Source of the DNA: Antedon mediterranea
Lineage: Eukaryota; Animalia; Echinodermata
DNA: 64,000 nucleotides
Assembly (NCBI RefSeq): GCF_964355755.1
Contig: NC_092673.1
Location: 10,478,001 to 10,542,000 of the forward strand
Reading direction: 5' to 3'
Each line of letters begins with the position of its first letter. The first letter of the stretch is position 1. This document shows positions 22,586 through 61,785 of the stretch, one piece after another. The notes below the pieces were generated by a model, which saw only the letters and a list, made by a program, of their open reading frames with translations, was not told the DNA's origin and searched no databases. A program made the translations under genes and the position numbers.

Positions 22586-23344
22586 CACGTTTTTTTTTCA
22601 GTACAAACATTATACGTCTGTGTAGATTCAATAAAATCGACCTTTACTTTAATTTTGGCCATTCATTGCTAAAATGTATACAAAATCATAAAATATGCAT
22701 ATTTTGATTTTTATCGATTTCAATATTATCAAAATACTACAATTTAGCGATAACAAACATTTCCTCTTATAATTATTTTTATTTACATAAACTTGCCGTA
22801 TAATTTGTTTTGTTTTATATTTTGATTTTAGTAACGCTGAGAAATTAATAAACAAAACCTTGTTTTATATAAATGTATACATCGACATTAACTAGTTTAA
22901 TATAATGTATAATGAAACATAAATATATCAACTTACTTTGCCGATAAACTATAATATTGATTGAATAATTGTTTTTTTTTCTGTTTTATTAGTTTGGATG
23001 ATATGTTTTTATTTGTAGTTGAAAAAGGCAATTCTTTTTTGTTTTCATTTATGATAATGAGATAAAAGCTAGCTGAGTTTTAAAAACTATTTTTATAAAT
23101 GAATGTATTAATCCATGCATTTGTTGGCAGAGCTAGCTGCACTTCGATTATCATACACAAAACACTTTGGTGTAATTACCAGTAGTAGCGGCCCATGTCC
23201 ACTCAGCTCTAAAGCTTAGTATTAATAGCTCCTAACCACCTTATACTCGGTAATAATATATTAGATTCAACAAAGAAGTTATAAAGTGATGGGCTATATA
23301 CAGCAGATAACAGCGTGTATTATTCGAGCGACATGGTAGCTGCC

Positions 23345-23728
23345 TATTGACTATTTTCACATAAGTCATAATATTTATGACATTAATTTAGCAGTCATTA
23401 GGTCATAACATTTATGACAATTTAAAGGTACATGTTAAGTCTCGGAATACGCTAGTCATAGTGTATAGTACAGGAAGCACTAATTTCGGGGCTTCCTGGT
23501 ACAGTATTGACTATTTTCACATAAGTCATAATATTTATGACATTAATTTAGCAGTCATTAGGTCATAAAATTTATGACAATTTAAAACTACATGTTATGT
23601 CTCGGAATACGCTGGTTATAGTACATGAGGCTGTGATTTCCGGGCTTCAAGGTATTGATTATTTTCACATAAGTCATAATATTTATGACATGATTGTGAA
23701 GCTGCCATTAGGTCATAAAATTTATGAC
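23345..23728. repeat. Left subterminal tandem repeat: 3 units of ~150-160 bp, each with 2 GTCATAAnnnTTATGAC palindromes
   Basis: Palindromes start at 23365, 23402, 23525, 23562, 23673 and 23712. Confidence 0.93.
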
Positions 23729-26700
23729 TTCAGAAATACAAGAATTTCTCTGTAAAAATAATTAGTAGACAAAGTTTTAGTGTGCTATACAAGCTTTTTA
23801 TTAATGACAAAACATGAACACACTCAAGGTGTTTTTTCTCAGCCGTACATCAAAGAATTAAAGAACTGATAAATTTTAACTATTTATTCACTAACACTGG
23901 TTATTAATTTATGAATTAAACTCGGCTTCTAGTAAAATAAGTATTGTATGCATTACTAACTATTTATACGTGATTGTAGTAGAAAATATTTAAAAGATAT
24001 ATACATTTCACAGGCACAGAATAATTCGAAAGCGCCCAGTGAAATTTAATTATTTAATTTTAAACGATAAAGATGAGGAAATCAGTGAGAATGCCCAATC
24101 CAAGATCCGAACCCGGAACATTCTGCTTGATATGCAGATGACCATTAGACCACTGTTGTAGTACGGCGGAACAGTACTAGTCTCTCAATTGTATATACAG
24201 TATATATATAAACATCACAAGGCACAAATAAAATTTTATAAATTAATTTGAAAAGTTATATAAAATGTGATTGCAAGGCATGTGTCCAGTATCATGAATG
24301 CTATTTTCACCCCGGAAATGTGTAGTCGTCCTCCTCATTTGCCATCTCCGCATTATCTTCAACCTCCTCATCTGTACTGTCGTCCTCATCTGAAATGATG
24401 AATAAACCAAGGCCCTATTATTTAATAGACCTCTAAATAGTTGTATCATTTTTTTAGAAGCTCTGTGTAAACAAAATTTTAAAATAGAGCATCTTGTTTT
24501 TTCTTTTTAATTTGCATTACTATATGTTTCAAATTGGGTCAGAAATTGATTATGGGTATTTTGAATTTTTATTAAAAATTAAATGCATGGGCTGTGTTTA
24601 TACAAGTTTACAATACAGATAGCATAGTATGCCGTCCAAGTTATGAGAATACAGCTTAATATGCCGTTTTAAAATTCCTGAACAAAAAGTAGCAGTATAT
24701 TGCTCTACAAACATCAAATTATCAGCATTGCGACTTGAATGTATACAATATCGCTTGTATATTGTTCTTCGTATTAGCATCCATGACAATAGATAAACAA
24801 TAAAGTTAATTTAACTTAAACTTACCATCCGATTGGGCTCCATTTTCAAGCTGAATGCTGTTTTCAATTTCTTCTTTGAAACGAACTAATCTGGATCTTA
24901 ATTCAGATTTCCCATCATTCTCGAGCAAGGTTATACAATTGCGCCGTTGCAAAATTATTTCCTTGAACACTGTAATTATAATAACAATAAAATAGATTTC
25001 AATTGAATATTAAATTATTTTGTTAGTTCATTAATGTCGTTTGTACAAACGACAATAGTAATGACTCAAAGAACAAGAATTTTTCCCATTTGATTGCGCG
25101 ACATGCCCAATTGTCACGCAGTATGTTTTTGGTTAACATCAATTAATGATTATTATGAGTTATGGTATAAATGTATTATTTACCATTCCATCCTAGGCAA
25201 TTTACAACTAAGTGACCTTCTCTGCTATGCCTTGTCACTAGTTGCTTAATTAGCAGTTCTAGTGACTTAGCCTTAATGACGCCACCAATTCCATTCATCA
25301 TGCGTTCGTGTTGAGGGCTTACTAATAACGTGCGAATGGTGTCTAAAAAAATAGGAATCATCATTAAACTGTAGGCCTACATACTTACATTAACTTTCCT
25401 GTATATTTGAATATAATAATAATAATATCAATGGTACATTTCTTTTTTTTCTTTTATTAGACACAAGAAGAAATAACCCCATTACCCCACCATCCACCTC
25501 ATACCAAAAAGCAGTTAGTATTGCAAATTTGTGAACATTTTTTAGTAGACTGCCAATCAATGATTGGCCTATATTTATAATTGAATAAAAACGACTGAAC
25601 TATATTTGTAAATACAATAACAAACTGGGTATACCTTGTTCTTCGCAGTACCAATACTGTACTTGCATGACTCTATCGTTGTCTTTTAAAATAGTCATAT
25701 TGTATAGCAGGTCCTCGTCATTGCAAACAACTACGATGACATCAGAAATCAGCATTTCTTTTTCACATTTCTAAAAAAAAAAGGATAGAAAAAATAATAT
25801 AATAAGAAGAACAACAATAACAAAACCAGTAACAAAACCAGTGCAGTCTCAATGTTACTGTGTTATGCGAAAATTGCATGTGCCAGGCTTCGGGGGGTCA
25901 GTTAGAATGGGTAGAATTTTTGAATATTGTTCGGCTGTATAATCTCTAAAAATAGTTTGAATAATTGTTCTGTTGTTTATATAAATCTATTAAAATCTTT
26001 CTTAGTAAAGCCACATTGATAGGCCGTAAAAAACAATTTAGTTTCAAATTTGAAAAAACCTCACTATAGAATGAATTACAAATATACAAAACAATATAAA
26101 ATATTTAAAATATATCAAACCTCTGTCAGTACGAGCAGGCCACGATGTAACCCCATATTACTGGAATTGGCAATATCTGTCAATTTTCTGCCAATAAACG
26201 GCCCAGACATAACTTGACACTTTGATCTTGTTCCATCTTCTGTTAAAATATCAACTGTTGACGCTTGAGGGTGACTTTGCTTTTGTTCCTCCCAAAACAG
26301 AGCATCTTGACAATGCATGAATAAACCTGGTGGAATTTCGCTTTTAGATAACTTCCCTTTCAAAAGAAATGTATTAAAATGTTTTTATTATTATTTATTC
26401 AATATTTTAATTTCTATAAGGGATAGTAGTTTTGTGCGAATAAAGTACCTTTGCATCGAACTGCATAATATTAAATTGTTTCAATTTTGTACGAATTTTT
26501 AAAATCTGACAGAGTGGGACTTGGTTTTAGAAATATAGCACAAATACAGCTACTGAATTCTATTAGTAACATAGTAACCTTACTTGTTGTTAAAAAAGGC
26601 CGAAGAGCAGAATCGGTCGTGTGCTCCGGAAATCTGTCGGTCGCTTCCTTCCATGTCAGTACTTTAATAGTTGTCAAAAATTTTCCTCTGGTCACCTTTA

Positions 26701-29699
26701 TCTGCTTGATCGACCGTGCTTTATTTTCAACCTCTTTAATGGACATTGTTCCGTCTGTTACAGATGACAGCATATTAAACTTGTCTTCTTCCGACAGGCC
26801 TTGTAGTGTCATGAAGAACTATAGAATTGTAAAAAAAATGTTTAGTCACAATACTGATAACAAATAATAAAGCGTTCCAATAGGGGTTCAAGAGGTTCAG
26901 TATACACATTTCTCTCGTGTGGATAACAATTGAAAAAAACAAAACAATTGTTAATGCACGTCATATCATTTTTGAATAGGCCATTTTTTAGTTTTAACAA
27001 AGTTATTCACACCCCCCCCCCCCCCTTTAGAAAAAACAGGCCTATTTTAAAATGTTTAAATAACTTAGGCCTAATTTGAATACATTTTTATAGTTTGTTA
27101 TGTTTAGATTTAACCTGTTAGTGGCAGTTTCATAGCTGTTGGTTGACAACTGTATAAAATAAATAAATCAATAAATAATAGATTGTTTTTTACAAAGTTA
27201 TTAGGCCTAACCCTTTGAATTAAGACGCGTTGTTTCTACCGCAAGTGACTGAGACTAATAATTAACTGATTGTGTTTCTTGCTTGTTTGTTTTTGCCAAA
27301 AAAAAAGCATACACCAGTAATTGCTATCTATTGAGAGAATAAATGTGACAGAAAATAAAGGTAAGAAACCTACCGACTGCTTCAATTGCTTTCCGGGTTT
27401 GGAATCCTTTACCGTTCCTGCATTATACTGGGCAAACAGCTTGGTAACCTTTGTGTAGCATCGGTCCGTATACAATGATACTTGGAACATCGGTTCCATG
27501 GACGATATTATCTGCAATACAAAGTTATTATTTATTATTACTATCCTTATTTATTATTATCGTTATTAGCCTTTTATTATTGTTAATATCCTTATTATTA
27601 TTATTATTAATTACAACATTATTATTAATTATATCACCATTACATTAATAATTACAACTTTATATATTAGAGTCCTAAATAACTTGTTTAAATAATATTA
27701 ATAATACCTTTTTTTCGAACGATTGTTTGCCAATTGCCTCTGTACACTTTCTCCTCCATGTCGAAGTAGTTTTTGCATCTTTGTCATTGTAATCTTGCAA
27801 AATGTTGCGGCATACTGCAACGTTGTCTTCAAAAGTTGCTTGGTGAGTATTACCTGTGACGAAATTATGTCGAGATGCCACACGTAGTGATTCAGTTTTT
27901 GTTAGATCAAAATAGACTGCCACTTCTAATTGTTTAAATATATTCTCACTCATTGTTGATAGTGCTGTTCTTAAATGATTTCCGCCAAGTGAATAAAAAA
28001 TACACTTCTCGTATTCTTGTTTGTTAAAGAAATCGTTATGTTCTTTATTAAGCAATACAGGTAGTACCGTGTTCACCAGACCGTCCTTTGTAAGCGTTTC
28101 TTGAATTTTTTAAACAAAATCTTGGTCGATCTTGCGAAGTAGTAAGTCCGATGGCGGCGCTACTATCGAACTTCTTGGCACAGCAACTAGACCTAGAAAC
28201 GTAAAATGACAGTTTGTTAAATATTACATCTTATGATTATACAATAAGGAAGTATTCTCCCCAGGATTTAGATCAAGCATCGTAGTAATCTTATGTCCTG
28301 GCTAATCTGGGTGTCGGTGACTAATAATGTCAGCCTACTACTACAATTTAGTGAAATCATTTACCTGTATTTCACAATTCTAATATGAAACAACTTAATA
28401 TAAATATGTCATTGTATTATTATTATGATAGGATTTTCATATTTAATAAACCCATTTTATTTTTTACTCTCTAAAATGGGGAATTCCACAGTAATTGCAA
28501 GTTGCGACATCAGTAAAAACATTTTTAAAAATTGTTTTACATACAAAGTTGGACATTTTCAGAAAAAGGATACATTATTGAATTATATGAATTACAAAAA
28601 ATGATTGACGTTATATTTTAATATTAGTTTTATTTTTTAAATAACAATAAATATCCTAAAAATGTAACGTTGCCATACAGTATAGGCCGTTTAGTCTAGG
28701 CCTAGGTCAGGACATCAACACCCCCTGTCTGCTTGAGTGCATGGAGATCACCCTGCACATGTTATTTTTTATATTTTAGTTAATTTTGAATTTATATAGT
28801 TATTTTGCACAATATCTAGGAGGTTAGGTCTAGTGTATGTTAGCATCCGGGCTAGGTCTGGGTTTGCAAGGCTAGTAGTAGTCATGTGAAAGACAATTAA
28901 TTGTCCAATCGAATGACCGGAATCTATTTATGCGTTTTATAATAACTGTTTGAAACTTAAATAACAATAAAACAAATAGAAAATAGAGTAACTATAAGAA
29001 GTTAAAACCTGTGTTAAAAATATCTTTAGTTCGTTCATCTTCGAAAAATGTGTTCATCCGCTTTATATTTTAATAGGCCTAGTACGTATAATTACTTATC
29101 TAGCCAGATTATACTAATTTAACGTAACGAATTGTAGATACATTAAATCTAATCATGGTTAGGCCTATAGTTATTGTGAGTTATGTTTAAAATTACAGTT
29201 TTTGTTATCCAAGATCAAAGTGAATAACTATTATGTGACATATTCAACAAAACATTTGAAAAATATAAAACAGTAACGTTTGTTTAATTGTAAACTACAG
29301 TAAGACAAAAGCAGATAATATGCTTGTCTATGGGGCATGGTACAGTATGTAACTTCAATAACAAATGTTTCATATACTAACCAATGATCTTTTCTTTGAT
29401 TGTTTCGCCGATTGTCTTTATGTTAATTCTTGTTCTCTTTGTAGTTACGTTTTCAGCATCTTGAGCTTTTCGCTTTCGTAATGTTTGCAATGTTTTGGTA
29501 AGGTCGTCAATTGTCTTGCATTTGCAAAATGGGCAATTTTCGTCCGGTTTGAATTTGCTCCACAATACTTTGGTTGCAGCAAGCGTACTACTACAGTCGC
29601 TTTCTTCTGTAACAATCTATAGTATTGCAAATTTGTTTTTGATTAAATAAATAACTAAACATAGAAATTTATATTTATATAGTTGTTAAGTGTACACAC

Positions 29700-30528
29700 G
29701 GGATATGACCGGTTGGGCCGCCGACAAGTTGAGCCGCCGGTGATTTCTATGACACGCCCAGTGCATGCGTCTTTTACGACATTTCGCGTAGTGATTAGGA
29801 TGGTGTCCTAGTAGCCTACACAAGTTCATGGTCTTGGTTTATTGGTCATGAAAATAAATAACATATAATTATATATTACAATTAACAACACAGCAAAAGA
29901 AAGTAGTAATATTTAATAATTTAATTGTTTTAATCTTTCGAGGAAAAAATTCAATGCACTCATAATTTTTCTCGCGTGTAGGCCTATTACCACGTAAAGC
30001 TTTACGTGGTAGTAGGCCTACACGCGAGAAAAATTAAGTCACGTTGTCTCTCAGGACTAATTAATAGAGTTTTAATATTCTTCGAATGAGGTTAAATAAA
30101 TATTATTTTTTATTTACTAATCTTTTAATATAATATTTTATTGAATTTTACAATGTTAATACACAAAATATTTTACTAAAAAACGTGATTTTATGTAATT
30201 GTTTTACCGAAAAATGGAGTAGGCCTAGCCTAGTTCATACAACTGCCGACTGAGGGGCAACATGTTTACGTCATTTTTGGCTAAAAACGATCACTTTCGG
30301 TGATGTTTTATATTTTGGAATCTACAAGCAAGATTTCCATAATTATTTAAATATAATATTTAATAATATACATACTAAAAACCATGATATATAAACTTTT
30401 GAATGTACATCGTTATCCCTAATATAAATAGAACGAGCACCGGCGAAAGTTAGCATTTGGCGTTCCATAGAAAATAACGTTTTTCTGGCGGTGGCTCAAC
30501 TTGTCGGCGGCTCAACTAGGCCTAATCC
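29700..30528. mobile_element. Non-autonomous TIR element (GG termini, 8-bp TSD; MULE- or Merlin-type)
   Basis: TSD GTACACAC at 29692-29699 and 30529-30536. The TIRs contain the inverted motif GCCGCCGACAAGTTGAGCC. Confidence 0.8.
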
Positions 30529-31006
30529 GTACACACTACACCCTATTATTCAGGGTTTACAGCCGAAACGGCCGCCAACTGAAACGGCCGCCAATTGAAA
30601 CGCAATTAAATGTATGAAACGCCGCGTGTGCCGTTTGTCATACAAAACGACGTGTGGTTTAATACAATTGTTTTACTTTTTTTTCAGATTGAAATGACTT
30701 TAGACGTATGTGACTTAATAAATATTAAACAGATAGATGTTTTTTAATTATTTATGTATTATTATGTTTATCGTATAATAATGAATGTTGTGTAAACATA
30801 GTTGGGTTTTTTATATATTTTTTAAATGTAGGCCTATACAGTAAAAGTGTAAGGAAAAGAATTGGAATTTGACAAAATAAATGATAAATAATTACTATTA
30901 TTATATTAAAATCTAAATTCTTCCTAGTACTAGTTAGATAATTTAATATTTATTGACGATTAAATCGAATTTATGATTTTCCCCGAATAGAGGTGGTTTT
31001 CACAAA

Positions 31007-33333
31007 TAGTCCAGATCCCTATGTCAAAAAAAGTGCCTTCGTGTGCAGATCATGGGGAAAGTGTAAACATTGTGTTTTATGAATAATTGAATCATGCTGG
31101 TTATAAAAACCCATGTTGTCAAATTTCTAAAGTTCATCTTTGACCTCTGACCTCAATTTGAATGTTTTGACCCATTGAAAACAAAATGGTCATATCTTTG
31201 CAACGCTTATTTTAAATGAAATAATTTTAGTGTCAAATTATTTGGGAGATGCATATTAATATTCTTTCTAATGGAAAAGTTTGTCCAAAAATGGCCGGAA
31301 GTATGATTTTTGGCATTTTTGACCTTTGACCTACATATCATATAACTCCGTAACTAACAGTTGGACAAACTTTAAATAGGGCTCAAATTAATCTGAAGGT
31401 ATATATTTCTATTCAGTCTAATAAGAACTTTTTTGAGAAAATGACCCAAAATCTTCTTATTGACCTTTGACCTGTACAGGTAGTACACATTCCTACAGTC
31501 TTAAAAACTATTGGCCGTAAAAGGTTTTTTTTTGTGAAATTGTTCGAAAAATTTACATTTATATGTTGTATAATAACAATATTTTATAGAAATGTAAAAG
31601 AATTCTATTTATGATAACTAACTTTGTAATATATTAACATCATTAGCATTTGTTAAAATATTAAAATGTGTTATATTTGCTGATTTTAAGCACTTCACAT
31701 GAATTTATCAGAATTACGTGTATTTAAATATAAAGTTTTATTTTTTTGACATAAAGAAAATTTAATTATCTATCAAATAAGACTATTTTCAAATTATTAT
31801 GGCTAAATCTTAATTAGATACAGGCAAAAAGGTGTATTTTTTTTACTTGTGTGAACAGCGCCCTCAATCTTCATTTTCCCCTAAAAAATACCACATTTTT
31901 ATGTGGTTTCATAAACTTAGCGGGTTGTAACTTTTTAAAAGATTTGTTGTCAGTGAAGTGTAACTCACATACCCCTTCTACCACATACTAAGTAAGTTTC
32001 TGAGATAAAATGAAAAAAATATTTTTATTGCTTGATATTTTTCTTAAGGTTTTTACATGGTACACGCTAAAAAAGATTTTGATTTTGTGCTAAAAATCCA
32101 TGTTTTTAGTTCAGTACAACAATCTTGTACAGACATTCTTACACAAACAGCATATTTTATTGGAAAGGTAATCATAATATCTATCCAATAAAAATTTTAT
32201 GAATTTTGTGTATTAATATCTGCTAGATAGCTTTTATTAAACCAAAAAGATGGACTTTTAGCTCAAATCTAAAATATTTTTTGGTGTGTATCATGTAATA
32301 ACCTCAACAAAAATATCAAGCTATCAAAATATTTTTCTCATTTTTTTTCAGAAACTGACCTAGTACGTTATAAAAGTGATATGTAAATTACAGGTTACTG
32401 TAAATAATCTTTAAAGCAAAGTTATAACCTGTTAAATTTATGAAACCACATAAAAATGTGGTATTTTGAGGGAAAAATTAAGATTGAGGGCGCTGTTCAC
32501 ACAAGTAAAAAAATACACCTTTTTGCCTGTATCAAATTAAGTTTTAGCCATAATAATTTGAAAATAGTCTTATTTGATAGATAATTAAATTTTCTTTATG
32601 TCAAAAAAATAAAACTTTATATTTAAATACACGTAATTCTGATAAATTCATGTGAAGTGCTTAAAATCAGCAAATATAACACATTTTAATATTTTAACAA
32701 ATGCTAGTGATGTTAATATATTACAAAGTTAGTGATCATAAATAGAATTCTTTTACATTTCTATAAAATATTGTTATTATACAACATATAAATGTAAATT
32801 TTTCGAACAATTTCACAAAAAAAAACCTTTTACGGCCAATAGTTTTTAAGACTGTAGGAATGTGTACTACCTGTACAGGTCAAAGGTCAATAAGAAGATT
32901 TTGGGTCATTTTCTCGAAAAAGTTCTTATTAGACTGAATAGAAATATATATCTTCAGATTAATTTGAGCCCTATTTAAAGTTTGTCCAACTGTTAGTTAC
33001 GGAGTTATTTGATATGTAGGTCAAAGGTCAAAATTGCCAAAAATCATACTTCCGGCCATTTTTGGACAAACTTTTCCATTAGAACGAATATTAATATGCA
33101 TCTCCCAAATAATTTGACACTAAAATTATTTCATTTAAAATAAGCGTTGCAAAGATATGACCATTTTGTTTTCAATGGGTCGAAACATTCAAATTGAGGT
33201 CAGAGGTCAAAGATGAATTTTAGAAATTTGACAACATGGGTTTTTATAACCAGCGTGATTCAAATATTCATAAAACACAATGTTTACACTTTCCCCATGA
33301 TCTGCACACAAAAATACATAGGGATCTGGACTA
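31007..33333. mobile_element. Foldback element with ~0.9-1.1 kb TIRs, Academ-like (TAG...CTA ends, AAA on both flanks)
   Basis: Ends TAGTCCAGATCCCTATGT ... ACATAGGGATCTGGACTA. Arms are near-identical from 31007 to ~31915, then more diverged to ~32105. Alternative reading: TA TSD with GTCC ends. Confidence 0.8.
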
Positions 33334-33359
33334 AAATTGTTTTACATTATATTATAAAC

Positions 33360-33865
33360 ATATACACGTTGTAGTGATGTATCGTTACATGTGCTGTACT
33401 ATTTCAATCGACTAGGACGGTGATAGTTTCAACAAAGTATTACATCGCAATGTTTTACTGTGTTTAGTGGTATATTATTTGTAAAACATGAAAGCAATTA
33501 ATATTTCGTTACTAAATGGATAAAGAATATATTTTAACATTGTTCCTCTTTGCACCCATCCTCTTCCCCATCCCTCAACCCTAATGTTACATACAAAACA
33601 CAAATTAAGTTTGTTTAAATTTTACTTAAACAATTGGTCTTATTTTGTGACAAGTTTCTCTTTCGGAAGTAATAGGGTGCTAATTTTAGTTGAGTACATA
33701 AATCACAGTGTCTATTTATTCGTTCCTGTACACGACATGTATTATTGTCCTGCGGTACGTACATTTGAAATCGCCAGTTTTTTAACGCTGAAATTATTAT
33801 GTATTCGAGAACCATCTGTGGGCACGACCTAGATGGTACGCGAGCGAAGCGAGCGTACCATCTAG
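33360..33865 (+). mobile_element. Non-autonomous Helitron-like 3' segment (copy 1)
   Basis: Ends with the hairpin GGTACGCGAGCGAAGCGAGCGTACC followed by ATCTAG|T. It is an inverted homolog of 34373-34890; the 5' boundary is approximate. Confidence 0.65.
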
Positions 33866-34372
33866 TGTTGATAATTTGATAACAAGTAATGTTCAATTGG
33901 AAAAAACTCCATTTTAAAGGAAAACGCAAGCACCAAAAAGTGCGTGGCATTTCTGTGCAAATAATAGATTATTGTCTTTATGTAATGTTAGATGACGCCG
34001 ATACGCGGAGCTCCACAGATAATGTGACTAGGCGCGGTTAATGCGCTAACATCTAACATAAATTCAAAACAATTAGCCCCGCGAAGGTGTTGTTGATACA
34101 CATAATAGTAAAACAATAGGACACAACTTCATTTAAAGTGCTTTATTTGCACGTTAGAATGTTTGAATATTATTCCACAATTTCATATGTTATTGAATTT
34201 ACTATAGACCTAATAAGTAACAATATAAATAGCTTTACTACATAACATATATTAATATTATTACAGTACATTTGTATTTGTTTTGCCTATTTCAACTTCA
34301 ATAATTGATACAGTATTTGTTTGAATACGTTAAATAAATTTATATTGCGCTTAGAATGGTGAATTATTATAA

Positions 34373-34890
34373 CTAGATGGTACGCTCGCTTCGCTCGCGT
34401 ACCATCTAGGTCGTGCCCACAGATGGTTCTCGAATACACAGTAATTTCAGCGTAACAAAACTGGCGATTTCAAATGTACGTGCCGCAGGACTATTGTCGT
34501 TTACAGAAACGAATAAATAGACACGATGATTTATGTAGTCAACTAAAATTAGCACCCCGGGAATTACTTCCGAAGGAGAAACTTATCACAAAATGAGTCC
34601 AAATTTTTGATTTGGACTCATTTAAAGAAACCCAATTTGTGTTTTGTATGGGTTTTTTTTATATTAGGGTTGAGGGATGGGAAAGCGGATAGGTACAAAG
34701 AGGAACAATTTTTAAATATATTCTTTATCCACTCAGTAACGAAATATTGTTTTCGTGTTTTATAGGCCTATAAATAATATACCTCTAAATACAGTAAAAC
34801 ATTTGCGATTTAATACTTTGTTAAAACTGTCACTGTCATAATCGATTGAAATATTAAAGTACATGTCACGATACACCACTACGACGTTTA
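34373..34890 (-). mobile_element. Non-autonomous Helitron-like 3' segment (copy 2, tail-to-tail with copy 1)
   Basis: The same hairpin plus CTAG|T on the minus strand. The body has diverged from copy 1. Confidence 0.65.
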
Positions 34891-46399: not shown

Positions 46400-46909
46400 T
46401 GAATCTTTTACAGTAATTTATTAATAACGGTACCTGTGATTTTACATTACCATTGACCATTGAAATCGACAGTAATTTTAATGTAGTTTTACAGTTATTT
46501 ATCAACATTATTCTACATTAATGGTAGACCACTTCCTTTGAAATCGACAGTAATTTTACGTAGTTTTATGGTACCCGTGATTTTACGTTATTGTTGACAA
46601 ACAGACTTTCAGATTAACAGTAATTATACTGTAGTAATTTATTAGAAACGGTACCTGTGATTTTACGTTATAGTTGACATCCGACTTTCAAGTTAACAGT
46701 AATTTGTAGTTTTACAGTAATTTATTTTCAACAGTACCTGTGATTCTACATTACGGTAGACAACCGAGTTTATGACCAACAGTAATAATTTACTGTAGTT
46801 TTACAGTAATTTATTTTCAACAGTACCTGTAATTCTACATTACGGTAAATTACTGGCGTCCAGATTGCCAGTAATTTACAGTTTTTTTATAAGAATTTTT
46901 TTAACAGTG
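46400..46909. mobile_element. EnSpm/CACTA-type non-autonomous element end with internal tandem repeats
   Basis: Terminus TTTTTAACAGTG|TA (reverse complement CACTGTTAAAAA), subterminal hairpin AAATTACTGGC...GCCAGTAATTT, and degenerate repeats containing GTACCTGTGATTTTAC. The other end was not found. Confidence 0.55.
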
Positions 46910-47835: not shown

Positions 47836-47890
47836 CATTGGACGTTGACGACGTCACATGAAATATAACGTTGATCAGCAGCCAATCAAA
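47836..47890 (+). promoter_or_regulatory. Possible transposase promoter (ATTGG/CCAAT boxes flanking a CRE-like TGACGACGTCA)
   Basis: Motifs lie about 100-150 bp upstream of ATG 47985. Motif evidence only. Confidence 0.3.
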
Positions 47891-47984
47891 TTCGTTCGCG
47901 CTTTTTCCAAAGATTAGATGCGAATGACGGTTAAATGAACATAAAACCGTATATTGTTCATTTCTGTTATCAATTTGTTAAATC

Positions 47985-50900: not shown

Positions 50901-53900
50901 CCGAGGAAACTCCCTGAAATGTGGGTTCTGTACGTCTTCTTCTACATCATCATGGTAAGTGTGAAGCTCAGGAGGCAATGTGATGTACATTTGTTGAACT
51001 CAGGTTGATCTCGGAAGTTGCTGCAGATGGTAGGTATAGTGATGCAGGAGCTGATATCTGTACATCAGTATGCCTCCTGAGCTTCACACTTACCATGATG
51101 ATGTAGAAGAAGACGTACAGAACCCACATTTCAGGGAGTTTCCTCGGTGTATTCAAGCTAGTGTGAGAAAGGTGGAATGCTTCCCTTTTAGAATGGGGAG
51201 GTGTGTTGTGAAAGGGGTCTCACGCTTGAATATCCTGTCCAGTTTGCTCATTTGCATGTAAATCAGCTGGTTGAAATGCAGGGTTGACCCCACCAGGATA
51301 GGCTGGTTATTAGTTCTTGTTTTTTTCAGGTGCAGCAGAAATAAGACGGTGGTTTTAAATCATGACAAGCTGGCTGATTTTAATTTACCTCCTCTTTCTT
51401 CACCTACAGATCCGGATGCAGGACCGTTGTATTGTCTATGTCGCCAGCCCTGGGCCGGCTCGTTTATGATACAATGTGACTATTGCGAGGTGTGGTACCA
51501 CGGTGCATGTGTGAATATTGCACTATCTGAGGCCTGGGACATTGACTTATATCGATGTGCGGACTGCAAGTCCTCAGTTAACAATTAAGTACTCACGTTT
51601 ACCTTCTCTTCTTCCTCAGATATGGATCAGTTACCGTTTGCTGACGGAAGTGATACGGAGATTTCCGAGATGGAGGAGGATGTGTTCTTGGCTAGTCCGG
51701 GGGTACAGGAGGAACTGACGGTGGCTGGGAATACGGGAGGGGCTTGCCCGGCGGCGAGCACCCCAGCCAAGGGGAAACCAATCTGCCATCTGATGACCCC
51801 GAAAGAAGAGGCAGCGGCTGGGGATACGAGAGGGGCTTGCCCGGTGGTGAGCACCCCAGCCGAGCGGAAACTAAAATGCCATCTGGGATGTGGTCCAGTG
51901 AGCAACATACGGGTCCACGTCACGAAGACGCATGCCCCGGCATGTTTCCGGCCACTGGAACGGAGTTCTTGGCGGAGGGCACGAGTGCAGTGGCGGGCAC
52001 TCACCAGTTTGGCAGCGGAGGGCCTTGGTAAAGGCAGAACACCAGAGGACCTGAGATGTCTCCTGAACGCCCAGCACCTTATGGGGGATGGCACTGATGT
52101 CCTACCCCCGGATAGGAAAACTCGTAGTGCCATCTTTATGCTGACACGGGTGATTGGGGGAAAGAGGCCCCCGCCTCTCACAATAGCTCCGGTTATCAGT
52201 CACCCGTCGGCTCTCATACACTGGCGCTGTGTGATCGCTCTCATCGCCTCTTTTGGTGAGGAGTTGGTGAAGGAGTGTGGTCGTCGGGCTGAGGAGGAGG
52301 AGCCGGCAGTGGACCAGATCGTCAAAAAGTCGACAAAGAGAAGGGCGGCAGAGGGAGAACATGGAGAGCGACCGACCAAGCGCGATGCCCCGGCACCGAA
52401 GGATGGTAGATCAGTGGCGGCGCCACCGATTGTGCGGGGTACATCGGCTTCGCTTGGTTCGGCACCCAAAGTGTTCGATGCTTGTTTTCACCTGGACCGG
52501 TTGCAGAGGGACCTGCAGCTTTCCAGACGAGCGGACCTCTGGGACGTGGAGCGAGCGGTGCGGGTGAGGAGTAGAACACAGCCTGTGGAAGTGGTAGGCG
52601 GGATTGCCCTGTTTGGCGATCCAACCACTTACCCCACCGAGCGGGAGATTGGTGGACTGGCGAGGAACGGCTGTGCGGTGGGCTTGGGAGTGGCTCCTGG
52701 CTACTCGCCGACAACGGTCCAATTCGATAGGCTCCTGGCCTTAGCCCGAACTCGAGATGTTCGAGTAATCGGGAGAGTGGGATTGGACCATTCGGCCCCG
52801 CCTACAGATTGGCCGAGACAAGATCTGCTGCTAAAGAGGGTGTTGGGTCGTTGCTTGGACGGCCGCCACCACCGCATCCTGTGTCTTGAAGTCTCTGGAG
52901 TTCAAGGCGATGTCACTGGGGAGGAGTGCCACTATCGCGTCTTGGACATCTTGCGTCTAAGTCGTGTGTCGAAGGAACAGCGTCTGCTTCTGGCAGACTA
53001 CGCTTCCACGGAAGCCGTAGCCACCGCCTACCTTCGACATTTCCCCAGGACATACTTAATTAGTGTGACCAGTCGAGTGACGGGCTTTACGGCCGATCAA
53101 CGCAAGGGCCTGCGTTTCATCGCTACCAATGAAGATCGGCGATTGCTGATGGGGTCAAACGGACCGGATTATCCTCCTGCCGGATACCCAGTTGGAGCAC
53201 CTCATCTGCTGTGGGCGACCGCCGTCGCCGTGGGACAGGTGCTCGACCGGAGCCCCGGGCAGGTCACTGATCTGACATGGAAGAACGGTCGAGATCTCCT
53301 TTGAGCCCCTGGCTCACCCACAACCAGAAGTTTTCAGTTTTCCAGAAGTTTTCCGTTTCAAAAGAACATGGTTCTGTTTTACATTTATTTTCATTTATAT
53401 CTTTCAGGTATCTAGGGAAGCGGAGGACGGTGCTACAGGCATGTCCCACGGCTAGTGACTACCTGAAGGGATCGTTGGAAGCGGTCTACACAGCTACGGG
53501 TATTGGGTATTTTTTCACGTACGAAAATCACCCGGTTTACCCCCGAGGTGGATCCAGGACGGGGTGCCCGCTTTTCAAACACGGGAGGAGTGTTGTGAAC
53601 GGCGCCCGCTGGGTAAACAGACCACCCCGCCGACCGAACGAGGGCGTCGCCCCGATAGCTTGATTTGCATACAGGGGGTATGTAAATGTTAACGTGGGAC
53701 CTCGACGCCGCCCGAGCTGGGCTATTCGAAGCAGGAACCAAGGAGAAACGGACACAACCGGAATTGACCAAGATATTTGGATTTACTGCTTACGGATACC
53801 TATGTGATTTAGGACAAGCGGGACTGTTAAGGTAAGCCTAGTAGCTTTCATTACCAGGCCATTCCAGCACCGACCTAAAATCACAACAGTAGGCCTAGGC

Positions 53901-56900
53901 CTAGAGACCTAGTTATTTACTACTAGTACTAGGCCCTAGGCCTGGGCCTAGTAAATATTACTTATTACTAAGCCTAGCTAGAGATAGGCTCTAGCCTAGG
54001 CCTATTCCTATGAGAATTTTAGTATGTAGTACTGTACTGTGTTTGGGATAGAAAAAACTTAATAGGGGTAATCAACCATTTGCCAGGTACACTCAAAATG
54101 TGTGCCGGCCCCCTTAATAGGCCTATATCCACTTGTTTATGGGAAAGGGTGTCCCAAAGAAGAGATCAAACATACACATTTTCAATAATATTTTACCATG
54201 TGTGGCATATAATTAATTATTTAAAATAACGATAGTGAGGCATTTGATGAATAGGCGTCACGCTTGCCATATGATTGTTTGTTGCCTACATTCCTTGTTG
54301 TTTTATCATGCTAATTACTTCCTCATTTACATACAACCTGTCCTATTGGTATATAAGTACTCTAAGCCTAGGCGTTGTTTTCTGTTCTGGTGGAAGATGA
54401 GAATAGTTTCTCAAAACATATCAATTTTTAGGCAGTTTGCCTATTCATATGCTTCACTATCATTATTTTAACTCAAAATTTCGGTGGAATCATTCTTGAT
54501 TTAATATCTAATTAATTATGTATGATAATAATTTAATCAAATTGCAAATTTTCTGATTACTATACAGAATCTGTTTGTCAAGTAACATCAACACACAGCA
54601 CTGCTTATCCAACTGAGCGTATGCTTTACTATTCTTCAAGTGAAGATGATGAAGTAGGCCTAATTGTACGTGGGAACGGTTCAATTCAATCAATCAATAA
54701 TGGATGTTCTGCTGTTGATGATACAGAAGGGTCACCTACTGGGATTTCGACTACCGAAGTTCCTCCAGCAGCAAAGAGAAAAGCATGGGAGGTTTCTACA
54801 ACAGATGTCGATACTTCTGATGATGACATACCTACAGAGTCAGCAGGTCAGTAACTTTAACAATACAATGACATGTTATGTAGTTATTTACTAGGTTAGA
54901 GTAGAGGCCGCCTCTAGGCCTATCCCTATGTTTTTATGGGCCCGATCTGGGAGGTAACAATATCGTATTCGATTGGGACATTTATCGTTGAGTATAGTTT
55001 TGTTTTTGTTGATTTACCTTTCCGTACTTATAACACAATTGTGTGCGTTGAGATTGTTCTTAACAAAGAAGTTTGCATTGTTAACGTTTTCTATTTCACT
55101 GGACCACCTCTAGTTACGTTCAGTATAACCCCTATTAAGGCTTCAGGAACAAAATAATGTCCCCTTGGCAGGGGTTTTTTACTGGAAAAAAAAAATTATT
55201 TTGATATGTAAAATAAATAATTGATCTGGAATCATAAAATTAAAAATTGAAATTAGCAGTCCCTTTTAAACAATAAATGTATCTAATTATTTCTATGATA
55301 ATAGTTTAAATTGCACATTTTCTGATTACAACATAGACTCTGTTTGTCTAGTAACAACTACCAAAGTTCCTCCAGCAGCAGAGAGAAAAGCATGGGAGGT
55401 TTCTACAACAGATGTCGATACTTCCGATGTCGATACTTCCGATGATGACATATCAGCAGGTCAGTAGCAATAACATTAACCATGAGCTTTTGCTAACCTT
55501 TCTTAGTAGGGCTCCTACCAACTTTATACAAAACTTCATCTAGGCTTGGGTAGGGAATTACCTTTTAAGCAGCCAGCCTAATAATACTACTACTACTACT
55601 ACTACTAGCCAGTAGATATTAGTATCCTCTATAGAGGCTAGTTTATTTATTTAGATTTACTTCCCTACTACACCTTTAAATCATTAGCATACTTAATAAT
55701 TACAAAGGTGCATTCTTCAGAAATAACAAAATACAACAAAAACCTCATTATTAATAACGATGAGAATAATGGTGAAAAAAAAGGATAAATGGTAATAACC
55801 TCCCATAAAGCCTATAGCTCCTCGATCAAAATATTATCTTCCACTATCCAAAATTTGAAAATGTCTGCTATCAATCACCAGTTACCCCAAATGAAGAATT
55901 ACTGTACATGTATGTTGCATAGGCTGCTATAAATATTAAACTACTATATTTTTATTTAGCCTGCAAGGAGGCCTAGAGACTGTAGAAACTAATTACCTTA
56001 ATTCATCTGGATCAAGTGATGATGAGATTAAAATCTCTAATCACACAAGTAAGCGTAGTGGTAAGTTTGATATGTCATTAATTTTTAAAACTACTTTTAT
56101 TAAATAGTGCTTGATGTTGATGGTTGTGCTGTACCTAAAAGATATGGAAATTGCTGGTTGTTTCCATTTGTGTCTGATTCTATGGTCAGGTTCTAATGTT
56201 ATGTCTGTATGGTATGTAAATAGGTACGACTGTCCAATGAACAAGGCACCTGCACAACCTGTAATTGAACACTCGAAAAGTGAAATTGAATTATCTGAAC
56301 CGAAAAAAAAATTGTTTGTCAAAGAATTAAAAGTATCTATATATTAATGCGAATTAGTCACCTAGTTTTACGTAACCTCCAAAACTTCTGAAACCGTATT
56401 GACTGATCACATTTTCTGCAATTGGTACCATATAATTGTTATTTTGTTTGTTTGTTTTTTTTGCCAATGGATAATGTAAGTTTATTCTTTCTGTAGAAAA
56501 AAGGAAAAGGAATCACCTACAGCCAATACACAACTTGTATTTGACCTGCTGTTGTGCATTAATGTGCATTGGTATGCTAAATTTTAGAGAAATAAAACAA
56601 ACAAGGAAAGCTTTTCAAGCAATGACCGAATATGAACAACGCTGTTGGATCCTTAAATATTTCAATGAACATCTCAGCACATCCGGAGGTGCCACCAAAA
56701 TCGGTCTACTAGTTGGTGCTAACAAAGTTTGTGCAAAAGCATGGATGTTAGTAAATGGTATTGGCCGGTCAACTTTTTACAAAATAAGGAAGCAAGCTAT
56801 TGGTAATTAATTGTTTAGTTTTACAGTACATTTTACATTATTTAATTTTACATGCTGTTAATATTACTTTTAATGTATGTGTTTTAATGTTGCTGAAACG

Positions 56901-59900
56901 GAAAGATTACTGTGACTGTGTGAAGATTACTTTCCATTATACTTATAGTCGTATTATACAGGGCCATAGCCAGGATCTGACGAGGAGTGGAGAATAACTT
57001 TTTTTTAAATGAATAGAATGCATTTGATTATTGTTTAATTATTTTTACACAATAAAATCAATATGCTTAACACTATGTTAGAAAGATAATGCAAAATGAT
57101 CATAAGTCATTAATCAATGGATTAAACCAAACAATAATAAAATAGTACAGTATTTGAAATTCCTAATATTTGAAATTTACATTTTATTTCTTTTCAGAAG
57201 GATGCTGTTATCTTTTACCACCCAACTTCACCAGAAAGATGGTATATAGCAATTCAACTCAACAGTGTCGGGCTTGGTTTATTAAATTTTGTAATGAATA
57301 CGGTGATCAAATGCCAACTAATGGACAAATCCATCTACCATCAACGCTTACCAAACATGATGTGTACATGCATATGAAAGATGAGTTTGAGCTAAGAAAT
57401 GAAGATGTGTGTGCATTAGCGACATTCTACAAGTTTTGGTGTGTTGAATTCAAGCATATTGTAATACCCGAGGTATGTTTACGTTTTTACACTTATTATC
57501 GTTTGTACCAACAAATACCATTCACTTCAATGGACAAAATCCATGTCATCTTCATTGACTGAAGTATTTTTTAACGTATTTTTATAAATTCACTTCAATG
57601 TTATGCAGAAAGTCCTGTAGGTTCAATTTTCATTCATAATAAAATACTGGAAAAACATACTGTACAATCCAGATGCATGTATGATGGGCCTCACAACTCC
57701 TTCCATACATTCACTATATTGAATGCAAAATTTGTTTAATTTTATATTTTTACGTGCTGTATTTTTTCAATTTTTTTTAATAGGAAAATCGTTTTGCAAA
57801 ATGCAGCAAATGCACCAGAATTAAATTTGAGCTGCACAAGACAAATCAAAAGCAAAAACGGCAAATACTAATGATGAAGAGAGAGAAACATTTACGAAAA
57901 CAAAAGTAAGTATGCCTACCTATTTTGTGTACAAAACCAGTAGGTTAAACCTTTCAACAAGAAATTCTGTTGAACTTGTATACCCGGTATTACCATAGAT
58001 AGGAAAAATAATTATTGCTTCCACTGTATACCTCCTCTATAGTATTATTAGTGTTTTTAAAAATAATTCTAACTTAATAAAATTAAGAGTGATTGAAATA
58101 AAACAGAAAATAACTGGGGAAAAATGGTAGAAAATGAAAATAATTATTGTGTATGAACAATGAATGAATAAAAGTGGTTGTAAACAAAAAAAGAGAAAAG
58201 ATAAACAAAATCATTATTATACAAAAAACCTTTACATTTAATCAATAATTGTAATAGATTAGAAGTAAAGCATTGTCTCATCTTGTCATCGGCTAATAGA
58301 TAACATATAACTAAACAAAACAAAAATTTATTATTAAATGCAAAATAAAACTATAAACATATGATTTGAATTTTTCAGTATTGAACGTCAAAAGTACTAT
58401 AAACATATGCAGAAAGCAAGACAGAATCCCACCAAGTATTTGTCAATAATTATCGATGGAATGGACCAAAGCAAGACTGATTTACCATCTTTTGCTTGCG
58501 AATCAAAAGAAACGTCGAAGATGTGGAAACTAGCCACACATGTAACTGGTGTTCTGGTACATGGGCGACATGGGCACTGCTTCATTGACCTAAAGCAGTT
58601 TCCACATGACTCAAACCTAACCTGCAACATTATACTGAAGGTGCTGTCAGAGATACAACCTCTACCACCAGTCTTATATCTGCAGTTGGACAATAGCGGA
58701 AAGGATAATAAAAACAGATTTGTTTTTGCCCTATGTGCTCTTCTTGTAGAGTTAAAGATTTTTCGAAAGGTAAATGACTATAAATTTATAAATGATATAT
58801 AAATAATAAAACAGTATACACAGTGCACTTTAAAGAACCCAGTTCATCATTCATTTACCCTGTTCTTGTTCACCACAAAATATCCCCTGTGTTGGGTGAT
58901 TTCCACCTGCCTAATAGGACAGTAAATAATTTACTATTGGTAATTATCTAAAGACATAAAATATTCAATAACATTCTAGTCTAACTAGATGAGGAAAAAA
59001 TGGAAATATACTAAAAATGTATTTTTTTTATGTTGCTTTGAAAAGTTTTAATTTTAAATCATTACTTCTTTTACTCTTTCAGATAAAGATTGGGTTTTTA
59101 ATGGTGGGTCACACTCACGAGGATATTGACCAATTATTTTCATGTGTGGCCAAATACCTGAACAAATATAGAGCATCTACACTTGATCATCTTCGAAGTG
59201 CTGTTGAAAACTCGTACAAAAAGTTGCCGATTACATCAAGTATCATTTCCTATCTGCATGACATTAAGAACTGGTTAGTACCATACATGCAAGACATACG
59301 TTACCACAGCAAACCACACCAGTTTAAGTTTGTTTTGGCTCAAACCGGAAAATGCATCATGTCCTATAAGAACTGGTCAACGGATTGTACTTGGTGTGAA
59401 TGTGCAAGAGAAATGGACACACTTCCATATTTGCTCAAGGAAAGCCCTGCTGATATACCAGTGTTGTGTACTCCTGATTTTAGTAATGCAGATATACCAA
59501 AGTTAAAAAAAAGTCTGGCGTCTGTTGCAAATTTTTTGCGAATAGAAGAACGTGACTGGTGGGAGGAATTTTTAAATAATATAGAAGACATCACAGAAGG
59601 TATGTACTGTACTACATTGCATGTGTGTTGTTTCACCATTTTACACATATATTTTTTGGTTAACAAGAGAATTTTGATTTTAGTATAGATTCAGCAGCTA
59701 TAACAAAATTCAAAATACTCCACACAACTATGTTGGGTCACATTCACCAATGCATGCTTCCACTGATCATTTTATGTGAGAACCTAAAATTATCAAATAA
59801 CATGAACGATATCTAGTGGAGTACACTGGAGAAACATGCCTCCTGATTAATTCATAAGATAAAATCAATCAATCAGCATCTGATTAGCATGGTGCGCAAT

Positions 59901-60651
59901 GTATTGGCCCAGCTTTTATGCAACAAACACCTCGGCATAAATATATCATGAATGTATATTATTTACTTTTTAAAACTAATACGTACTCTTTTTTTTTAAG
60001 GAAATGAACAGCGATTTTTGCTCCATGACATCATTTTTAATGACAACAATGCAAGCCCTATCAGGGAGGAATCTGATGGAAACGAGACAGACATTAGTGA
60101 CTCAGATAATGAAAATGAAATAAGACCGGTATGATAAAGATATTATAGATTTTCAAAATTACATCTTTGAAACATGTAATGCAACTTAGTTTAAAGCAGT
60201 GCTTATATTTGGAATATGATCTCATAATCGCATCAAGCAAATGCATCAACGAAAATTCTATATTTTTAGGGTTGTAAGAAAAATGATTATGACTTTTCTA
60301 TGCTTTCTCCCACACTACAAGGTACACATTGGTAAATTTTCGAAGCGTAAGCCACCACAGCAACTCGATGTTGGTGCTATGGTAGCAACAGCTTTAAGGA
60401 GATATCCCACAGAATGGCCTCAGATAGGCAAAATATTCAGCATAAATAACAATGAGGTAGAAGTAGTGTGGTACACTGGAACGTATACTTCCCGGTTTGT
60501 TCTGTGTGAAAAAGATGGACAAGAATGGCGAGAAATAATATCGAAGGAGGAGGTGATAAGTATATTTAATTTAACACCAACTAGTAGATTGCCTACCAAT
60601 GTTATTGTTAAATTAAAAGAATTAAGAGATGACTTTTTAAATGAAAGTTAA
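47985..60651 (+). CDS. Multi-exon DDD (RNase H-fold) transposase with Sola1-like motifs, acidic repetitive N-terminus and a C-terminal Tudor/SH3-like barrel; 5' part interrupted by an LTR element
   Basis: Open, phase-compatible core exons at 56497-56802, 57198-57472, 57784-57905, 58379-58769, 59083-59599, 60001-60128 and 60322-60651. Motifs: FAKCSKC..H, SIIIDGMDQ, LYLQLDNSGKDNKN, FLMVGHTHEDIDQLFS. The upstream acidic exons (47985-~48242, 54568-54846, 55337-55459, ~55968-56060) are less certain, and exon 1 reaches a TAG just before its apparent donor. Confidence 0.8.
48247..48544 (+). repeat. 5' LTR
   Basis: TGTTGTGA...TCACAACA; contains a strong splice donor AAG|GTAAG at 48487/48488. Confidence 0.96.
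48546..48559 (+). promoter_or_regulatory. Primer-binding site, likely tRNA-Ser
   Basis: TGGCGCTGCGAGCA lies 1 nt after the LTR and resembles the complement of a tRNA-Ser 3' end. Confidence 0.7.
49772..50785 (+). CDS. gag: Truncated Gag with N-terminal ComEA-like helix-hairpin-helix domain
   Basis: N-terminus VAINFWTEPDL..LLGKRARKITDWRSKFGNI..DLEYLTGI. Capsid-like segment TFNGWDDDWYLFKKRF...ALFWCMEGPAAKF...VLSVRFG. Homology is inferred to end at ~50724, where the inverted repeat begins. Confidence 0.75.
   Translation: MPHVAINFWTEPDLVHLLGKRARKITDWRSKFGNIRACDLEYLTGIKCLSSKTTRWDFTPNPQLVSSWVQNTSTPQLFHAAQVPFGTYSGDLPGGSFSWRHTSTNQPSSDHREKTDSGCRNTHYRYATKAECQPISELLALDSSLNVRGHHCTKGSKTSKTRSVSKLCRLLTEDCFSDSSSSSSLMDSSSSNDESCTSDEDSDQDRAYGKYSTSVQSKRRHSHRHSQRSQKLLRQKDIPTSLTFNGWDDDWYLFKKRFRSFAKAQNLTTGDSKNALFWCMEGPAAKFLTNLLRMEPTLDFKEMMDVLSVRFGDGERFLKQELITSLSWWGQPCISTS
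50725..51323. repeat. 253-bp apparently perfect inverted repeat (50725-50977 / 51071-51323) with 93-bp spacer
   Basis: The arms read as exact reverse complements, and the ORF track gives the same peptide on opposite strands. Confidence 0.95.
51324..51588 (+). pseudogene. Residual integrase C-terminus carrying a PHD finger
   Basis: KTVVLNHDKL resembles the end of the GPY/F module. It is followed by [28 protein letters not shown]...YRCADC, a complete C4HC3 pattern. Confidence 0.85.
51622..53304 (+). CDS. 560-aa accessory ORF with C-terminal TatD-like (amidohydrolase TIM-barrel) domain, metal ligands substituted
   Basis: VFDACFHLD, GLGVAP, IGRVGLDHS and RLLMGSNGPDYPP align by eye to TatD DxHxH, GxHP, GExGLD and ETDxP. 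A polypyrimidine-CAG acceptor lies at 51619. Confidence 0.85.
   Translation: MDQLPFADGSDTEISEMEEDVFLASPGVQEELTVAGNTGGACPAASTPAKGKPICHLMTPKEEAAAGDTRGACPVVSTPAERKLKCHLGCGPVSNIRVHVTKTHAPACFRPLERSSWRRARVQWRALTSLAAEGLGKGRTPEDLRCLLNAQHLMGDGTDVLPPDRKTRSAIFMLTRVIGGKRPPPLTIAPVISHPSALIHWRCVIALIASFGEELVKECGRRAEEEEPAVDQIVKKSTKRRAAEGEHGERPTKRDAPAPKDGRSVAAPPIVRGTSASLGSAPKVFDACFHLDRLQRDLQLSRRADLWDVERAVRVRSRTQPVEVVGGIALFGDPTTYPTEREIGGLARNGCAVGLGVAPGYSPTTVQFDRLLALARTRDVRVIGRVGLDHSAPPTDWPRQDLLLKRVLGRCLDGRHHRILCLEVSGVQGDVTGEECHYRVLDILRLSRVSKEQRLLLADYASTEAVATAYLRHFPRTYLISVTSRVTGFTADQRKGLRFIATNEDRRLLMGSNGPDYPPAGYPVGAPHLLWATAVAVGQVLDRSPGQVTDLTWKNGRDLL
53591..53888 (+). repeat. 3' LTR preceded by polypurine tract GGGAGGAG
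   Basis: Direct copy of 48247-48544. Confidence 0.96.
58813..58962 (+). mobile_element. Degenerate copy of the SINE at 16044-16314, in a transposase intron
   Basis: Shares TTTAAAGAACCCAGTTCAT, ATAGGACAGT and CTAAAGACATAAAATA. Confidence 0.7.
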
Positions 60652-60764
60652 TGCAGGGAGCTTTACAACTCACTGGTTGTCACAATAGGGTGCACATTAA
60701 TGGAATTTTACATGTATAATGAATCTAAAAAAATTATTTAATTTTCAACCAATTTCATAATTGT

Positions 60765-61204
60765 ATATAACAGTAGCTCAACCATATAATGTAGTCAAGT
60801 TTATGACCATGTAGTTTATATAACAATAGCTCAACCATATACTGTAGTCATAAAGCTTATGACCATGTAGTTTATATAACAATAGCTCAACCATATACTG
60901 TAGTCATAAAGTTTATGACCATGTACTTTTTATAACAATAGCTCAACCATATACTGTAGTCATAAAGTTTATGACCATGTAGTTTATATAACAATAGCTC
61001 AATCATATACTGTAGTCATAAAGTTTATGACCATGTAGTTTATATAACAATAGCTCAACCATTATTATACTGTAGTCATAAAGTTTATGACCATGTAGTT
61101 TTTATAACAATAGCTCAACCATATACTGTAGTCAAGTTTATGACCATGTAGTTTTTATAACAATAGCTCAACCATATACTGTAGTCATAATGTTTATGAC
61201 CATG
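60765..61204. repeat. Right subterminal tandem repeat: ~8 units of ~56 bp, each with a GTCATAAnnnTTATGAC palindrome (2 internally deleted)
   Basis: Full palindromes start at 60847, 60903, 60959, 61015, 61075 and 61184. Confidence 0.95.
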
Positions 61205-61785
61205 CAGATGAACTTTATAGTAAAGTTGTATTAAAACAATGAATGATTAAAAATTAAAAATATTCTGCAGTTATTAAAATTTGTTTTCTTTGCTTTGTGT
61301 GTACTTCGCGAAAAAAAATGGACATTATAAAGATTTTTTTGGCCCATACCATTTATTTTTTTTATTAAATAAAGCAGTTTCTGCACATTAAACCTAGTTT
61401 AAATAAGAAGCTAATAATCCGAACAAAACTCATTGTGTAATGTCTATTGATGTTTTGGAAAACGGACAGTATATTTTAACCTAAAAAAGCTAGTATGTTT
61501 TTTTCTATAATTATGAAAATGATAGCGAATTATAAATTTATAGAATAACCAAGGATTTGCATATTGTCGATCTATTTTATTGATCTTTTTCTATCTCTAA
61601 AATATTCACCATTATAGACATTATGGCTGACATTATCAAACTGTATGCTTTCTCAATAATTAAACAAATCTTACAACCACATCTGTTTTTTCAAATAATA
61701 TTTTTAATTCTAATGATAGCTTTTTTTTAGGAAAATTCTATAAATAATACGGATTGTAGAAATCCGTTATGGCACAAAATCGTGT

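Follow-up and report, generated by a model that had tools for sequence, protein, structure and literature searches.

What kind of element occupies the 39 kb of AT-rich, non-satellite DNA that lies between two blocks of a 19-bp satellite (1-22560 and 61788-63993) in the feather star Antedon mediterranea? The stretch that we analysed, hereafter the window, is 64,000 nucleotides long (NC_092673.1, positions 10,478,001 to 10,542,000), and an earlier note had proposed that all of the unique DNA bounded by the two blocks is a single giant transposon that fits no described superfamily. The interval between the blocks is indeed non-satellite, and we consider it highly probable that it represents a single copy of a cut-and-paste DNA transposon of the Sola1 type, with nested repeats (22586..61786, + strand). 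Its DDD transposase core is intact, whereas the gene that faces it head-to-head is broken and is predicted to encode a ParB-like protein fused to a likely inactive methylase fold. We conclude that the element is real and that it is the animal version of a design recently described in a brown alga.

The transposase core is intact

The transposase core (56497..60651, + strand) consists of seven GT-AG exons that splice into 688 codons with zero internal stops and encode the DUF7869 DDD domain. Its product is identical to XP_071949118.1 (P0136) at 573/573 aligned residues. The motifs that the earlier note had recognized are present on the + strand, with DGMDQ at 58455, DNxxxxNKN (as DNSGKDNKN) at 58689 and GHTHEDIDQ at 59107-59133, all inside Pfam DUF7869. 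In an alignment of 41 sequences, picked from 120 matches plus their cluster members, residues D146 and D224 (P0136 numbering) are invariant in 41/41 relatives, and D264, D266 and the GHTHED-D block are retained in at least 90%. The AlphaFold model of the protein is confident (predicted local distance difference test score, pLDDT, 89), and TnsB, IstA, DDE transposases and integrases are among its top Foldseek rows, with no row at E<=0.001. The conserved aspartates and the confident model identify a DDD transposase with an RNase H fold. As to a CMC or Transib affinity, Pfam returned DUF7869 alone.

Upstream of the core, candidate acidic exons lie at 54568..56331 (+ strand). A likely 5' acidic exon (47985..48240, + strand), which has repeats in common with 54613-54746, appears to have been severed by the insertion of a long terminal repeat (LTR) element. 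Contigs join 48212 to 54748 in two of four runs, indicating that other copies are without the LTR block.

A partner gene combines predicted ParB-like and methylase-like folds

As the earlier note had described, a second intron-rich gene diverges from the transposase gene on the opposite strand. This partner gene has ten exons (36471-24307, - strand) that give 664 residues with one premature stop. Exons 2-5 (29616-29382, 28192-27708, 27511-27374 and 26818-26584) and exons 6-10 (26356-26121, 25770-25635, 25342-25184, 24969-24826 and 24389-24307) together span 24307..29616 on the - strand. The likely first coding exon (36328..36471, - strand) is in frame with exon 2 and has a GT donor; it is weakly supported, topping the 1449 open reading frames (ORFs) of the window against the N-terminal profile with E=0.059. 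The protein is identical to XP_071947520.1 (P0125), the product of a sister copy, at 464/473 residues. The premature TAA lies in the ParB-like exon at 28110..28112 (- strand). In three database models of Antedon type (P0002, P0126 and P0149) the protein starts at a methionine downstream of this position, so the stop may be common to many copies.

The partner is laid out as a ParB-like domain, a helical part, a methylase-like fold and an acidic tail. In the P0125 model (pLDDT 64), the N-terminal half matches ParB-family proteins, with Noc at rank 1 and Spo0J at rank 3 in Foldseek, and KorB aligns to the model over 154 residues (Z 6.5, root-mean-square deviation (rmsd) 13.6). For residues 295-480, beta-class amino-methyltransferases fill the top 11 rows of the structure search, of which the best methylase row is MboIIa (Z 8.9, rmsd 4.0, 150 aligned), and the Atlas partner model matches ParB+N6_N4_Mtase clusters. 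The ParB-like domain of this opposite-strand gene is thus recognized by fold, with modest scores, and we predict that the partner is a ParB-like DNA-binding fold fused to a DNA-methylase fold.

One explanation for such a fusion is that the partner is a self-methylating enzyme, which would mark the palindromes of its own element with N4-methylcytosine (4mC) or N6-methyladenine (6mA) and so tune or escape silencing; this has been proposed for algal elements in the accessible text of PMC12477816. We aligned the window protein with 16 long homologues and observed a clear GxG S-adenosylmethionine (SAM) motif in 8/17 sequences and a D-x-P-Y form of motif IV in 3. The Pfam N6_N4_Mtase (PF01555) cut-off was passed by 5/27 and 2/9 of the proteins scanned, including a sea-cucumber protein. 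However, motif IV reads D/N-x-P in 6 of the 17 and takes neither form in 8, the window and sea-urchin proteins included; no named animal protein in the alignment has D-x-P-Y, and the Antedon protein has neither the SAM motif nor motif IV. Self-methylation is, in our assessment, an unlikely account of the partner in general; it is unlikely for the window lineage but may apply in the lineages that keep the motifs. With both the catalytic and the SAM motif lost and no sequence-profile match seen, the methylase half is likely inactive in the window lineage.

The arginine of GxxR, which we take to be a ParB motif, is found in 2/17 aligned partners and is absent from the window protein, making a CTP-driven clamp uncertain.

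Palindrome arrays lie near both ends

The two end regions of the element each contain an array with six GTCATAA-N3-TTATGAC palindromes, the left with a ~160-bp period (23344..23728) and the right with a 56-bp unit repeated 7.9 times (60764..61204). All 12 matches to GTCATAANNNTTATGAC in the window lie near the element ends, 6 at 23365-23728 and 6 at 60847-61200, while shuffled windows contain a mean of 0.01 matches and 0/100 shuffles reach 12. The same palindrome arrays therefore do occur near both ends, as had been claimed. Two complete relatives, L081 and L083, each have a distinct palindrome of their own near both ends (6+6 and 8+22, respectively). In length and symmetry, the palindromes presumably resemble parS-type sites.

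The element ends most likely read AAC...GTT

The right end of the element reads ...AAAATCGTGTT (...CGTGTT), and its reverse complement, AACACGATTTT (AACACG; 61776..61786, - strand), which forms the right terminal inverted repeat (TIR), agrees with the relatives. A contig from run X5 aligns exactly as far as 61786 and then continues with 85 other letters, and the right boundary is most likely 61786. On the left, the TIR remnant CACGTTTTT (22586..22594, + strand) has likely lost its first two bases, AA, judging from the right end and from L081 and L083. With these ends, the TIR of the window element is ~11 bp long and the flanks form a perfect 4-bp target site duplication (TSD), CTCT, likely at 22582..22585 (+ strand; this presupposes a left end without AA) and 61787..61790 (+ strand). 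Both ends of L081 and L083, as well as the right end of the window element, are of the AAC...GTT type, and the left end of the window element differs by the AA.

The CACGWTTTT termini named in the earlier note are present, matching at 8/9 positions, and what changes is the right boundary, which most likely falls at 61786 rather than 61784. From CAC...GTG ends on a Sola-like enzyme, the note had pointed to a separate transposon group; such termini are typical of CMC and Transib elements. CACG at 22586 and CGTG at 61781-61784 are indeed present in the window, DUF7869 is unnamed in the literature searched, and its link to Sola1 comes from design and not from direct comparison. However, the 2/2 complete relatives begin with AAC and end with GTT, the alignment of the contig from another sample stops at 61786, the CAC...GTG ends leave flanks of CTCT and TTCT that match at 3/4 positions, and a published Sola1 element with the same gene pair has AACCG ends and a 4-bp TSD (PMC12477816, accessible text). 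A separate CAC...GTG group is a very improbable reading that is already largely refuted; most likely, the damaged left end shifted the reading by 2 bp and so gave the CAC...GTG form. With AAC...GTT ends, the conflict between Sola and CMC features vanishes.

Targeting of the satellite was considered and is unsupported, as the X5 contig continues past 61786 with other letters and the flanks of L081 and L083 are of other kinds.

Relatives carry the same gene pair

The best database matches for both genes are A. mediterranea RefSeq proteins. At 90% identity, each gene falls into a cluster whose 9 members are spread over several chromosomes, and the right half of the element was also found in contigs from runs of two organisms. 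Together with the 573/573 identity of the transposase, these sequence comparisons support the conclusion that the element belongs to a young multicopy family in the feather star.

A scan based on the transposase alignment fetched 85 loci, mostly short, and the partner lies beside the transposase in 5 of them. In one of these (L001, 475-4367) the partner is downstream and tail-to-tail with the transposase, and gene order is thus variable. Of the 8 loci that extend 4 kb or more upstream, 4 have the partner upstream on the opposite strand (L067, L068, L081 and L083), L067 and L068 being one family. L081 is a complete element of 13,750 bp with AACAC...GTGTT ends and a TTAG duplication, and L083 is complete at 10,907 bp with AACCA...TGGTT ends and an ATAA duplication; their TIRs are 23 bp and 34 bp long, and the two genes are divergent and head-to-head in each. 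Because L081 and L083 pair both genes inside TIRs flanked by 4-bp TSDs, they support the proposal that a Sola1-like DDD transposase and a ParB- and methylase-like partner belong to a single element. A TIR and TSD match at L067 (5071-21156) leaves the partner outside the interval and was treated as chance.

L081 (1-22573) and L083 (1-21636) are filed as bacterial genome bins yet carry split, animal-type transposon genes. As the breaks between their transposase pieces coincide, exactly or nearly, with the profile positions of the window introns, the two loci are most likely animal (host) DNA in these bins.

Gene identifiers are also suggestive of pairing, without amounting to a map: they are consecutive for the two genes in Lytechinus (LOC121412394/395), in Antedon (XP_071941517/518) and in Holothuria (HOLleu_43994/43995), where both genes lie on a single 38.5-kb contig. 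In one Antedon gene model, partner exons are joined to transposase sequence in antisense orientation. A search of representatives recovered 152 partner homologues, and the 20 that we looked up include proteins named from sea urchins, a brittle star, a crinoid, a sea cucumber, a hemichordate, two anemones, a nemertean, an amoebozoan and Chara, with more sea cucumbers elsewhere. Partner-bearing elements are scattered across the animal branches of the transposase tree (midpoint root, weak backbone), and transposase identity between families is 39-53%. In viral contigs, 25 pattern matches yielded 0 confirmed cases.

These data also bear on the notion that the locus is no single mobile unit and consists of unrelated insertions piled in the satellite, with both genes there by chance. 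In its favour, nested repeats make up much of the interior, and no single contig crosses the element from end to end. On the other hand, the rare palindrome is confined to the two end regions and the gene pair recurs across distant animals, and we give this notion the least credence of all those considered here.

The design matches a described Sola1 element

The view that the element fits no described superfamily is not borne out, and a match to an already described family, which the earlier note had named beforehand as the outcome that would overturn it, is at hand. Insofar as the accessible parts of the cited sources describe it, Sola1-1_Ec32 of the brown alga Ectocarpus is 21.5 kb long, has an opposite-strand gene with ParB-like and N4C/N6A methylase domains, AACCG-CGGTT termini, a 4-bp TSD and a best match to a moss Sola1, and belongs among giant algal families in which nested insertions are typical (PMC12477816). 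The likeness thus extends to giant size, a transposase with an opposite-strand ParB/methylase gene, AAC-type termini, a 4-bp TSD and nested insertions; it is one of described design and does not imply orthology to the feather-star protein pair. The two differ in host, in the TIR (~11 bp here versus 282 bp, imperfect, in the alga), and in the partner, which has 664 residues here and 1104 there and has lost its methylase motifs here. The palindrome arrays near both ends are unmentioned for Sola1-1_Ec32 in the accessible text.

More broadly, the Sola group is described in the accessible text as having a DDD transposase, a 4-bp TSD, variable termini and TIRs from 11 bp, with some members exceeding 15 kb (PMC10741241, PMC3845634, PMC4455052). 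The window element and its relatives share the transposase, the TSD length (CTCT, TTAG and ATAA), the variable termini and the range of TIR lengths; they differ in that 3/3 TSDs depart from the AWWT target preference of Sola1 (PMC3845634) and in that the second gene falls outside the described Sola1 features. Ectocarpus Sola1 has a target bias other than AWWT (PMC12477816).

Other systems share parts of this design. The Plavaka (EnSpm) giants of red algae carry ParB-like and methylase accessory genes (bioRxiv 10.1101/2025.02.11.637652, accessible text), but their transposase belongs to a different superfamily and the two functions sit in separate genes, PAG2 (N6A methylase and SET) and PAG3 (ParB and 2OG oxygenase). 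ParB-fused methylases are described in chlorophytes and chytrids (Iyer et al., accessible text). Phage fusions of ParB with N6/N4-methylases and the bacterial ParB/Noc-parS systems show the same domain order and predicted folds, whereas the gene described here is eukaryotic and intron-rich, lacks the GxxR arginine and is of uncertain CTP use. No report of this design in animals was found in the literature searched, in which the algal papers alone were relevant, judged by titles and passages, and which did not extend to subscription journals and Repbase Reports, and 'Giant Transposons in Eukaryotes' mentions neither Sola nor ParB. What our searches did not turn up is a published account of the distribution in animals, where partner homologues occur in echinoderms, a hemichordate, cnidarians and a nemertean and adjoin the transposase in several. 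From these data, the design appears to be widespread among marine invertebrates.

Several observations weigh against our interpretation of this locus. For the partner, no Foldseek row reached E<=0.001, the Antedon C-terminal part scored -1.6 against a methylase sequence profile, no better than shuffles, and the C-terminal part of the P0125 model has a pLDDT of ~50-70 and was built with the help of an alignment containing true methylase-like rows. The end palindromes could equally serve as transposase sites. The missing left AA is deduced from the right end and the relatives and not from other copies, the assignment to Sola1 is drawn from the ends, the length of the TSD and the architecture and not from sequence alignment with Sola1 references, and 0/3 TSDs fit AWWT, three sites being too few to judge a preference. 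Finally, 4/8 loci with enough flank are without the partner (two of these, L063 and L074, are one fragmentary insertion), and transposase and partner identities show no significant correlation across six pairs (Spearman 0.37, 104/720 permutations).

A possible mechanism of transposition

From what is known of the family, the transposase would use D146, D224 and D264/D266 (P0136 numbering) to cut at the short TIRs and would insert the element with a 4-bp stagger. The partner may bind the family-specific end palindromes as ParB binds parS, and may thereby help to pair the distant ends or shield the element from host silencing, a role that by analogy we consider about evenly poised between right and wrong. 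In the window lineage it would act through binding rather than methylation, because it no longer has the catalytic and SAM motifs. The window copy would have landed in the satellite and then gained at least 13 kb of other repeats. It is probably immobile or reliant on other copies, given the premature stop in the partner, the LTR element in the likely first transposase exon and the damaged left end.

Nested repeats and other features of the window

The expectation of nested elements was confirmed. Partner intron 1 contains a block resembling a foldback or miniature inverted-repeat transposable element (30561..35897), in which 806-bp and ~540-bp inverted arms lie within a 32-bp inverted pair. 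An inverted-repeat element with ~280-bp arms (45478..47811) contains a weak IS1595/Merlin-like fragment (E=0.016); it starts with AACC and finishes with GGTT, has no 4-bp duplication and includes 83-bp arrays. The LTR element (48245..53888, + strand) has 300-bp TG...CA LTRs that are 99% alike and a GTAG duplication. These three separable nests sum to 13.3 kb, a lower bound for inserted repeats, and subtracting them leaves ~26 kb, long introns and older repeats included. The description of the element as giant thus holds for its 39-kb span, which is partly a product of nesting.

The LTR element carries a gag-like ORF, a PHD finger and, in an ORF of 571 codons, a TatD nuclease domain, as well as a 265-bp internal inverted repeat (50725-51323), and no reverse transcriptase or integrase was seen in it; to our knowledge, TatD is an unusual cargo for such an element. 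A decayed reverse-transcriptase fragment resembling a long interspersed nuclear element lies at 42769..43374 (- strand; RVT_1 E=3.6e-6) and is bypassed by a contig joint from 42180 to 43494 in two of four runs. Between the two genes there is also a ~570-bp direct duplication (38064-40331 and 43684-43955) with an inverted partial third copy, and partner intron 1 contains a near-perfect, loopless 74-bp hairpin with 37-bp arms (29963-30036).

Within the left satellite block, a short stretch of the satellite unit is inverted (12029-12093), and ~285 bp of non-satellite sequence is followed by TAAA repeats (16035-16320), possibly the 3' end of a retroposon. A second insertion of 2,152 bp (16397-18548) has CAC...GTG termini (CACACTCAC / CACATTCAT) and is flanked by ATCT as a perfect 4-bp duplication; it contains no long ORF, blastn shows no similarity between it and the large element, and we presume that it may be a non-autonomous Chapaev-like element.

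Implications for giant transposons in animals

The surprise of this locus is limited by the same design having already been published for a brown alga. We tentatively entertain, at somewhat less than even confidence, a wider picture in which an old, unreported clade of giant Sola1-type elements extends across marine invertebrates and uses a phage-derived ParB and parS-like arrays, which together form a bacterial segregation module, to pair its distant ends or shield the element, with the methylase half eroding by lineage and some members perhaps writing 4mC or 6mA. If the partner binds the palindromes, animal genomes would contain a ParB/parS-like module with a matched protein and site in each family, and this would account for how two-gene transposons stay coherent while reaching 20-40 kb. 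The lineages that keep the SAM motif, such as sea cucumbers, would be candidate sources of 4mC or 6mA in animals. The analysis also gives a likely identity, as transposon genes, to DUF7869 and to several invertebrate proteins so far labelled 'uncharacterized'.

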